Program-made: the position numbers
Shown: positions 33,994 to 36,900 of the stretch, in pieces
Layout of the letters: every line of letters begins with the position of its first letter
How positions within the stretch are numbered: position 1 is the stretch's first letter
DNA from: a plasmid
Strand: one strand, 5' to 3'
NCBI RefSeq assembly: GCF_988242995.1
Contig: NZ_OZ547044.1
Length of the DNA stretch: 64,000 nt

Positions 33994-36900
33994 TGACAGC
34001 CTCCCCGCCCTGAAAGACATCGAGGATGTCAAAACGAAGCATTGCCGCAGAGCTTAACCCTCAGCATGAACTGCCCACCGGAGCGGATGCCCTGCAGGCT
34101 TTCGCAGGGGCAGCTTAAACGAACGGTTCACACAAAAAACCTTAAGTCAGTTAAAGGAAACCAGATGAACAGAACTAATGGCGAACCAGAGACAGAAACA
34201 GACGTGATGGCCACCGCTTTCAGCACCATGCGCAAGTACGGCATGAATATCATCACCGCCACGCAGCATATGGATATTAATGCTTACGTGAAATCCGATC
34301 CGCGGATGCCGAGAACGCGGCTGCGTCGTTACCTGGGACAGTACGGCCTGCGCGGTGAGGCCCTGAGCGCGGAGGTAAGACGTATCGTCGCTGGCCCTGA
34401 ACGACCAGATAACACGCTGAAAGCCGGAATCTTCTATACGTGGCCCTATGGCTGGGAGCCTGCGGATTTCACGCCAGTGATGAGGCGCATTTTCAAGGGA
34501 AAGCGCACCCGCCATGTGATGTTGTTTGATGAACTGCCTCAGCTGTTTGGCAAGAATGACTATTGAACCGGATACTATTTTTGAGGCGAGGTATGGGTAC
34601 ACCAACATTTAGCTCATTTAACGATGTGGTCCGGGAGCTTGAGGATGTATATGGCCACCAGGAGCTGTGGCTTTATTCTGGCCTTAATGAGGACAGCCCC
34701 ATCGAGACAGCCCGCCGGCGTCAGAAATGGCGATCTCCAAAAATTCTCAAACGAAACGGCAGAATGGTGGCAGAACAATCAGGCCAGCCTGATTTCTGGG
34801 TGCTCACGGGTGACTACCATCTGCCGCAGTCTGAACACAGCGCTCCGCCGTGGAAAGCCTGCCTCATCAATAAGGTCTTTAAAGTGTATTGTTCACTGTT
34901 AGGGAAAAAAACATGACCGACTGTGTTACCCGGACTGGTGACGACAAAACAATGTGGCTCGTGACATTGCCGGAGATCATTACAAATAACAGTACCCGCC
35001 AGGAGGAAAATCTGGTCGTTATTCTGAGCAGAGAGGAATCGTGGGGGCCAACTTCTGACCATTTTCCCGACGGATTGTACCGGGTCTCCTGCATAATGAC
35101 ACTGTACCTGGCCGATACCGAACAGACGAAGACTCAGACTTTCACTGCAATCTACTGGCCTCAACAGAAGGCCCTGCATCTGTTTACAGATGAGTTCAGA
35201 CTGGAACGCCGCCTGCAGGGACTCGGCCTGGGTAGCTGGATCACGCAGCAGTTTGTTCTCTGGGCCAGAGGCCTTCCGCCAGCAACCCTGGTTTTGCCGA
35301 TTGAAATTTCCCGGGTTGATGAAGAAAACGAAGAAAACAAGATCCGGAGGGACAGGCTGTGGCACGCAATGGGTTTCCGGTTCCCGCCGGGGGAAACCAG
35401 CTCAATGCCGCTGCGGGCAGACGAACTGCAGTTGCCGCGGGGCAGGTGTTCAACGCTCCGGGTGGAGCCCCTGGTATCCGCGGTACGCCGGCTGGAAGAC
35501 AGTTATCGCGCGCTGCAGGAAAAAATCGTGCAGCTCGAAGGCAAAAAACGGTCGCAAAAACAGTTAATTACTTCACTTCAGAATCGTCCATTTTATCATC
35601 TGTTGCACAGGAAAGGGGGCCAGCTCCCGGACGAGAAATATGACGCCCTGCCGCTGCGGGCAGAAAAACTGTCTCTGCCGCAGAGCGGGGATTCTGACCT
35701 GGAGGTGGCGCAACGGGCAACCGGGGTCATCCGGCTGGCTACCCTGTGTGCTCAGTCGCAGAAAAGAATCCTGGAGCTGGAAAGGGAGCTTGCCTCGCAA
35801 AGTGAGGAGCTCGTTGACCTGCAGGCAAATCTCCTTTCTATCCTGCGTGAGAAAGTCGGCAACGAGGCCTTATTCTGGGGGGGCGTGGTGAGTATTATTG
35901 GATTTATCTACTGGATGTTGGGGTCATGAATGTTCCCGTTCCATAGCCACCCACTGAAGAGGAGTGAAACCTGTGCCCGAAAATATCGTGTCTACCGTCA
36001 TTGACAGGGTAGTTTTGTTTGTGACTTCGTCTGTTTTCTGGCTGGCTGTCGCTGGCTGGTTAGTCATCCTGACTCCGGTAATATTACGAAGAAAATTCTC
36101 GGCAAAGAAAAAAGTTAACAGAAATTATGAATAACCTGGTTCCAGTTGGATCTCCGGCATCTCCCGGAACATTGCTCCCGGTGGCCATCGATTACCCTGC
36201 CGCCCTCGCCCTGCGCCAGATGGCGCTCGTGCAGGATGAACTGCCGAAATACCTGCTGGCGCCGGAAGTCAGCGCCCTGCTCCATTACGTGCCGGATCTT
36301 CACCGCAAGATGCTGCTGGCGACGCTGTGGAACACCGGCGCGCGCATTAATGAAGCGCTCGCGCTGACCCGGGGGGATTTTTCGCTGGTGCCGCCGTATC
36401 CGTTCGTGCAGCTGGCCACGCTCAAGCAGCGCACCGAGAAAGCGGCCAGGACGGCAGGTCGTGCCCCCGCAGGCAGTCAGGTCCATCGTCTGGTTCCCCT
36501 TTCCGATCACCACTACGTCAGTCAGCTGCAGATGATGGTGGCCACCCTGAAAATTCCGCTGGAAAGACGAAACAAGCGCACCGGCAGAATGGAGAAGGCA
36601 CGTATCTGGGAGATCACAGACCGTACCGTGCGCACCTGGCTTAGCGAAGCGGTGGAGGCCGCAGCGGCCGACGGGGTGACGTTCTCAGTACCGGTTACCC
36701 CCCATACGTTCCGTCACTCCTACGCGATGCATATGCTGTACGCCGGCATACCTCTGAAGGTTTTGCAGAGCCTGATGGGCCACAAATCGATCAGTTCCAC
36801 GGAGGTCTATACGAAGGTGTTTGCGCTCGATGTCGCGGCACGGCACCGGGTGCAGTTTGCTATGCCGGAAGCTGAAGCTGTTGCGTTGATAAAAAAGTTA

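Follow-up and report, generated by a model that had tools for sequence, protein, structure and literature searches.

The window analysed here is a stretch of 64,000 nucleotides from a plasmid (contig NZ_OZ547044.1 of NCBI RefSeq assembly GCF_988242995.1), in which the ccdAB addiction module and a ResD-type tyrosine recombinase gene are separated by a group of genes whose largest member, ORF3, encodes a predicted GNAT-fold protein with a C-terminal membrane anchor. All of these genes lie on the plus strand. The upstream conserved flank consists of ccdA (33471–33689) and ccdB (33691–33996), recognized from the list of open reading frames (ORFs) and from the RefSeq annotation of the identical plasmid NZ_AP018673.1. 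After a 168-nt spacer comes ORF1 (34165–34566), which encodes a soluble protein of 133 amino acids (aa), followed by ORF2 (34593–34916), encoding a soluble protein of 107 aa, with its start at 34593 set by alignment of homologues, and by ORF3 (34913–35929), a 338-aa protein that combines a GNAT domain, a duplicated helical stalk and the anchor. A putative ORF4 (35964–36134) may encode a 56-aa single-pass membrane protein. The downstream conserved flank is the recombinase gene (36127–36921), whose product is 89% identical to ResD of plasmid F. The positions and common orientation of the first three ORFs are those given in an earlier reading of the sequence alone (the original prediction).

In F itself (NC_002483), ccdB ends at 46865 and the integrase (ResD) gene starts at 46866. 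Since this junction is seamless, the 2,130 bp that lie between the ccdB stop and the recombinase start in the window are intercalated, bearing out the claim that some 2.1 kb separate two genes that are directly adjacent in F. The 3.6-kb stretch recurs with 100% identity in many Klebsiella plasmids of the IncFII(K)/IncFIB(K) type, in which ORF1, ORF2 and ORF3 are all labelled “hypothetical protein” in the RefSeq annotation, and the three ORFs are indeed without known function, as had been stated. The recombinase matches NCBIfam tyrosine recombinase models, in every case below the equivalog cut-off.

The three genes had also been described as translationally coupled. This holds for ORF2 and ORF3, where stop and start codons overlap in an ATGA (34913–34916), but not for ORF1 and ORF2, which are 26 nt apart. 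Counts of internal promoters and terminators in the cluster do not exceed those in shuffled sequence, so that transcription may run on from the ccd promoter as far as resD, a read-through that has been described for F. An Rfam scan of the cluster returned no non-coding RNA, and a search of the insert's flanks for repeats and recombination sites gave only short matches at chance level.

The N-terminal domain of ORF3 can be divided into two halves of very different character. Residues 1–100 (34913–35212) form a hypervariable β-sheet half, presumed to be the acceptor-binding side, while residues 101–160 (35213–35392) form the conserved cofactor-binding half, which includes motif A, W117, R145–R146 and W150. 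A GNAT-like N-terminus had originally been proposed from the motif RLQGLGLGS (residues 100–108), and both structure prediction and fold search uphold it. An AlphaFold2 (AF2) model of residues 1–176, made from a deeper alignment than the full-length model, reached a predicted local distance difference test (pLDDT) score of 93.3 and a predicted template-modelling (pTM) score of 0.86. The core GNAT fold is present in the model as a mixed β-sheet with α3, β5, α4 and β6. Motif A (Q/R-x-x-G-x-G/A), which forms the pyrophosphate-binding loop at the β4–α3 junction, is present as well. In ORF3 it reads Q102-G-L-G105-L-G107 (35216–35233) and aligns with motif A of the GNATs 4f6a and 4h89.

At the level of sequence profiles, the link to GNATs is transitive. 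ORF3 itself has no Pfam match even at E ≤ 10, and a Foldseek search of the PDB with the full-length model gave none at E 1e-3, although GNATs were enriched. In a Pfam scan of 39 members of the ORF3 family, Acetyltransf_1 was found in five and Acetyltransf_7 in four (E ≤ 1e-3; best 8.8e-8). The PDB profile matches of ORF3 are below threshold (best E 0.12–0.6), but nearly all are GNATs, aligned from motif A through α4. A Klebsiella protein of 98% identity bears the automatic UniProt name “N-acetyltransferase domain-containing”. Because its relatives match the Acetyltransf_1 and Acetyltransf_7 families and its PDB profile matches are nearly all GNATs, the modelled N-terminal domain of ORF3 is supported as a GNAT acyl-CoA transferase fold.

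The rest of the protein is a predicted stalk and membrane anchor. The internal repeat noted previously, with its two motifs PLRADELQLPRGR (residues 166–178) and PLRAEKLSLPQSG (residues 247–259), is real: residues 163–222 and 245–304 align with a score of 84, compared with 25 ± 4.4 and a maximum of 45 in 500 shuffles. Copy 1 (35399–35578) comprises the segment S-M-P-L-R-A-D-E-L-Q-L-P and the first long helix, and copy 2 (35645–35824) comprises A-L-P-L-R-A-E-K-L-S-L-P and the start of the second. In the full-length AF2 model, the long helices span residues 187–224 and 262–337, the second continuing into the terminal hydrophobic segment. Matches of ORF3 to coiled-coil families are all sub-threshold. 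The C-terminal hydrophobic anchor of the original prediction is also present (residues 319–337; 35867–35923), with a mean Kyte–Doolittle value of 1.75 over 19 residues. It is the sole strongly hydrophobic segment of ORF3, and only one residue follows it. ORF3 has no N-terminal signal sequence and thus looks like a tail-anchored protein, with one hydrophobic helix at its extreme C-terminus and no signal or other membrane segment. The simplest topology would be a tail-anchored protein that is probably held in the inner membrane, with its GNAT domain in the cytoplasm because there is no signal peptide.

ORF3 belongs to a broad, unnamed protein family that has no Pfam, NCBIfam or PADLOC model. A profile of residues 1–164 run against 1.8 billion cluster representatives retrieved 98 of them at E ≤ 1e-3. 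The full-length proteins measure 245–340 aa, and in most of them the motif R-G-x-[GHR]-x-G-[ST] is found at about residue 100 and a hydrophobic segment at the C-terminal end. They share a common order: a variable, β-rich N-terminus, a conserved block (L-R-G-x-[GHR]-x-G-[ST] ... W-A-K ... P ... V ... I-x-L-S ... D-A ... N ... R-R-N-R-F-Y-E-x-F-G-x-x-F), a conserved S-x-P ... L segment, a helical region and the terminal hydrophobic stretch. The family and its three-part architecture are kept across several genera of proteobacteria, among them Pseudomonas, Xanthomonas, Limnohabitans and Thalassospira, and members are found in metagenomes as well. The near-invariant residues across the family are G103, G107, W117, R145, R146 and G154, with G103 and G107 each kept in 97% of the 39 members. 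To our knowledge, no characterized bacterial GNAT has a stalk-plus-anchor architecture, and ORF3 would represent a GNAT of new architecture.

Close homologues of ORF3 are restricted to Enterobacterales plasmids. The gene is present in 1,457 of the 72,556 plasmids in PLSDB (about 2%), of which 1,309 (about 90%) are from Klebsiella and many are from clinical isolates. Together with the absence of the interval from F, this indicates that the genes are not universally conserved backbone. Matches that cover at least 80% of ORF3 occur in 1,386 plasmids, with alleles that range from less than 60% to 100% identity. The allele in the window is a minority form (38 PLSDB records at ≥ 99%). A phage origin was considered and dropped, as neither ORF1 nor ORF3 had a tblastn match among 50,697 phage records.

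The alleles of ORF3 differ from each other in a highly uneven manner. Among the Klebsiella plasmids, residues 1–100 come in two allele types with an identity of only about 31%, while residues 101–305 are 58–98% identical between alleles and the last 33 residues are 36–100% identical, varying independently of the remainder. The three segments recombine independently, making ORF3 a mosaic gene. The allele at locus L022 is an example: its flanks and ORF2 are identical to those of the window, and substitutions are found only from about residue 45 of ORF3 to its end.

Pairwise Nei–Gojobori estimates of the ratio of nonsynonymous to synonymous substitution (dN/dS) give 0.69–0.95 for the whole ORF3 gene, compared with 0.06–0.09 for resD of the same plasmids. 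The cofactor half (residues 101–160) has the lowest values in the gene, 0.33–0.36, and is under purifying selection, whereas the tail reaches 0.85–1.96 from small counts. Conservation in the wider family is likewise concentrated in residues 101–160, and the mean frequency of the top residue over residues 1–100 is only 0.26 among the 39 family members. The pattern fits a conserved cofactor site that is joined to a fast-changing acceptor side and a fast-changing membrane tail.

The original prediction described the interval as an accessory module inserted at a conserved backbone position. The insertion stands, relative to F, but the single three-gene unit does not, and the interval is better described as a variable cargo slot within the run of genes from ccdAB to resD that is typical of plasmids of the F-like, IncFIB(K) and IncR groups. 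ORF1, ORF2 and ORF3 are independent tenants of this slot. In plasmids of the type represented by locus L003, ORF3 is the sole gene between ccdB and resD. Homology between L003 and the window runs through ccdAB until 14 nt before the start of ORF1 and resumes at residue 106 of ORF3. For L003 and the IncR-type locus L002 alike, DNA homology with the window is lost between 34151 and 35229. In L002, the ORF3 allele is preceded by a ribbon-helix-helix (RHH)-containing protein of 314 aa, an ORF1 homologue and two other genes. ORF1-like genes have other partners in L004, L015 and L016 too. An ORF2-like gene is the first of an array at eight other loci, for example in Escherichia, Pantoea, Enterobacter and Cronobacter plasmids, where the downstream genes are unrelated to ORF3. 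Seven of these eight arrays end in a ResD-type recombinase, and in the remaining one (L016) a Rep3 gene follows instead.

Clustering of the genes from 14 slot loci yielded a small recurrent set of cargo families that are reshuffled among them. The most frequent are the ORF2-like family A (nine loci) and family B, the GNAT-stalk-anchor family of ORF3 (seven loci), followed by family C, proteins of some 230 aa that carry a membrane segment at the N-terminus (six), and the ORF1-like family D (five). Family E (109 aa) was found at three loci, and family F (RHH-containing, about 310 aa), family G (137 aa), family H (111–115 aa) and a mutually related 67-aa/182-aa pair at two each. Six unrelated proteins occurred at one locus each. 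None of the families was assigned by Pfam or NCBIfam, and only family C matched any library, with E-values of 1e-26 to 4e-38 to PDC-S67, a candidate system in PADLOC. Family C (L007 6803–7519, L017 823–1554, L018 4360–5034) occupies this slot in other plasmids, often beside a GNAT-stalk-anchor gene, and is absent from the window.

No neighbour recurs beside the distant GNAT-stalk-anchor genes, and a conserved GNAT partner was rejected as a candidate when the 163-aa upstream genes of L025 and L026 proved to be mutually unrelated. Because it stands alone in L003 and has no conserved neighbour at the distant loci, ORF3 is most simply regarded as standing on its own. An integron-like cassette array was also rejected, as the recombinase scores only 61 and 48 bits where the integron-integrase models require 265 and 435. 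No flanking repeats stand out, though no search with a dedicated attC model was made. The RHH protein of about 310 aa, which is FitA-like, recurs upstream of ORF3-type genes (L002 2034–2978 and L007 5084–6004). At L005 (5377–6147), the cargo after the ORF2-like gene is a 256-aa protein in which IRNALVHRNG corresponds to an R-x4-H motif of HEPN type; it had no match in PADLOC or NCBIfam.

The other ORFs are less informative. ORF1 (family D), an independent cargo gene, has no match in Pfam, NCBIfam or PADLOC, nor in alignment-based Pfam and PDB searches; its one match, at 8e-13, is to phrog_26837, itself a family of unknown function. Its homologues form about 120 clusters on Enterobacterales plasmids. 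A naive dN/dS of 1.5 had suggested positive selection on ORF1 and was found to be an alignment artefact of two compensating indels: between alleles, a 6-nt expansion of an ETET-coding repeat and a 6-nt deletion about 80 nt downstream (approximately 34197–34290) put some 26 codons out of alignment register while the reading frame is kept. ORF2 (family A, whose members usually open such arrays) is present in 1,042 plasmids by tblastn and has a conserved core, GH-ELWL ... W-SPKILKR. It has no match in Pfam, NCBIfam, PADLOC, PHROGs or PDB profiles, and no RHH or helix-turn-helix (HTH) domain was detected. The stop of ORF4 overlaps the recombinase start by 8 nt, and one membrane segment is predicted in its product. 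An alternative GTG start at 35973, located 9 nt after a GAGGAG, would give 53 aa. Searches with ORF4 in Pfam, NCBIfam and PHROGs gave nothing useful. ORF4 DNA accompanies ORF3 in 1,389 plasmids. Because the frame is shifted in a large class of these, it may be the DNA ahead of resD that is conserved here, and not an encoded protein.

What, then, does ORF3 do? We propose, with about even confidence, that it is a membrane-tethered acyl-CoA transferase that acts in conflicts between mobile elements, as one of the independently assorting genes of the cargo slot. ORF3 would be held at the cytoplasmic side of the inner membrane, where it would probably form an oligomer through its coiled coil. The conserved half with its Q-x-x-G-x-G and RR motifs would bind acyl-CoA, the hypervariable β-sheet half would select a target, and the target would be acylated at the membrane. 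This activity may serve the plasmid in phage defence, abortive infection or competition with other plasmids.

A role in conflict is suggested by the rapid, mosaic evolution of ORF3 and by its gene company. Among the neighbours at other loci are an OLD nuclease together with a UvrD helicase, VapBC, a KAP NTPase, Abi_2 and Phd/PIN. None of ORF1–ORF4 matches a known or candidate system in PADLOC v2 at E ≤ 0.01. The support for a conflict role is circumstantial and is made up of PDC-S67 in the slot, these neighbours, the pif genes beside ccdAB in F and the phage resistance reported for GNAT integron cassettes. In F, pifC and a P-loop NTPase gene are found just upstream of ccdA; they are the T7-exclusion pif genes (pifA/pifC). 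The slot also resembles the P2/P4 defence hotspots in having conserved flanks that enclose interchangeable cargo, one family of which is a PADLOC candidate, but differs from them in that its cargo is at most candidate defence. Phage resistance has been reported for Brc113 and BrcP, which are single-gene, GNAT-domain integron cassettes (bioRxiv 10.1101/2024.07.02.601719). By description, they resemble ORF3 in being single-gene, plasmid-borne and GNAT-containing, but they are carried as integron cassettes, and a stalk-plus-anchor architecture has not been described for them.

Several observations weigh against this proposal. ORF3 has no significant match in Pfam, NCBIfam, PADLOC or PHROGs, and its full-length AF2 model is of modest confidence (pLDDT 68). 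Truncated and frameshifted copies circulate, and for the dN/dS near 1 in the stalk and tail, relaxed constraint fits as well as diversifying selection. PDC-S67 itself has only candidate status as a defence gene. No literature was found on the three WP accessions or on PDC-S67, and the pBIC1a transcriptome paper does not cover the locus. Measured against the GNAT superfamily (e.g., PatZ/Pat and NatD), ORF3 departs not only in lacking a significant direct match to GNAT models and in carrying, beyond the GNAT domain, the duplicated helical stalk and the membrane anchor at the C-terminus, but also in the domain itself. The α1–α2 arm of canonical GNATs is absent from the model, which has only β-strands before helix 106–119. 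Position 150, which aligns with the α4 Tyr of 4f6a, is a Trp that is invariant in the Klebsiella clade, while 71% of the wider family have a Tyr. The α4 Tyr is the general acid in many, but not all, GNATs. With W150 in place of the usual Tyr, catalysis by ORF3 may be altered or lost.

These last two features, along with the fast-evolving stalk and tail, speak for a reading of ORF3 as a pseudo-enzyme, in which the GNAT fold would serve only for binding or sensing, carried on a coiled-coil scaffold anchored in the membrane, with any effect exerted through the membrane segment, for example by perturbation upon activation. However, motif A (Q-x-x-G-x-G) and R145–R146 are conserved, and no other part of the gene is as constrained as the cofactor half, as expected of an enzyme that binds acyl-CoA. 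A pseudo-enzyme is accordingly considered unlikely, if the most serious of the alternatives.

A toxin–antitoxin system is a less probable reading. Here, ORF2 and ORF3 would form a GNAT-type pair in the manner of TacA/TacT, KacA/KacT, AtaR/AtaT or ItaRT, with ORF3 acetylating charged tRNA and ORF2 neutralizing it, and would constitute a second addiction module next to ccdAB. In favour of it, a plasmid-borne GNAT-fold gene is overlapped through an ATGA by a small upstream gene, the pair adjoins an addiction module, and a GNAT-stalk-anchor gene in L007 shares 4 nt with the gene for a 306-aa protein whose N-terminus is a FitA-like RHH domain. Against it, the known toxins are soluble proteins of about 170 aa, and ORF3 is twice that size and membrane-anchored. 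ORF2 itself has no RHH or HTH match in Pfam, NCBIfam or PDB profiles, and the pairing is not obligatory, as L003-type plasmids carry an intact ORF3 without ORF2 or any other upstream partner, and ORF2-like genes elsewhere precede genes for unrelated proteins. Moreover, the TacT score of ORF3 is not above that of generic GNATs.

Equally improbable is a housekeeping role in plasmid maintenance, in which the cluster would be expressed with resD from the ccd promoter and act as an accessory to ResD multimer resolution or in membrane positioning. ORF3 is co-oriented with resD and always directly upstream of it, with a gap of only about 10 nt in L009. There is no convincing internal promoter or terminator, and rep, par and ccd are neighbouring genes. 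Nevertheless, F ResD functions without such genes, the contents of the slot are interchangeable and often lack ORF3, distant family members are found away from recombinases, and ORF3 has evolved about ten times faster than resD. We therefore regard maintenance as less likely than conflict. The least probable reading is that all three ORFs are hitch-hikers in decay and do nothing at present, for while pairwise dN/dS is high, frameshifted and truncated copies are frequent and ORF1, ORF2 and ORF3 have no known function, at least 80% of ORF3 is kept in those 1,386 plasmids across its whole range of alleles, the family and its three-part architecture are conserved over several proteobacterial genera, and the cofactor half is under purifying selection.

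A bolder form of the proposed conflict role can be entertained, tentatively and with clearly less confidence than the acyltransferase proposal itself. The slot, bounded by ccdAB or an ORF2-like leader on one side and resD on the other, may be an unrecognized defence or competition hotspot of Enterobacterales plasmids whose tenants, among them the GNAT-stalk-anchor protein, PDC-S67, ORF1 and ORF2, are new conflict systems. The GNAT protein would then acylate a target at the inner membrane that is derived from or induced by the invader, with acyl-CoA bound by the conserved half and specificity set by the swappable N-terminal β-sheet half.

Elsewhere in the window, there are two copies of IS26 (4755–5574 and 26373–27192), and collinearity with NZ_AP018673.1 begins only at 26373. 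The GC content rises to about 70% at 32200–32599, inside a minus-strand ORF (32058–32630) for a 190-aa hypothetical protein, in surroundings of about 45%. Rfam matches above the gathering score identify an AS-pc01 antisense RNA (50276–50372, minus strand; 97.7 bits) and the sok antitoxin RNA of a hok/sok module (58425–58598, plus strand; 67.3 bits).

In resistance plasmids of the IncFIB(K), IncFII(K) and IncR types, ORF3 is located within the core that serves replication and maintenance. Even if it were inert, the slot upstream of resD would still be useful as a marker of recombination among these plasmids. If ORF3 is an active, membrane-tethered acyltransferase with a role in conflict, it would represent a new enzyme architecture for plasmid-borne defence or competition, and a hypervariable region of epidemic plasmids would be explained. 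With N-terminal halves of two types that are a mere 31% or so identical, joined to the same cofactor half, it would then provide a natural specificity-swap system.

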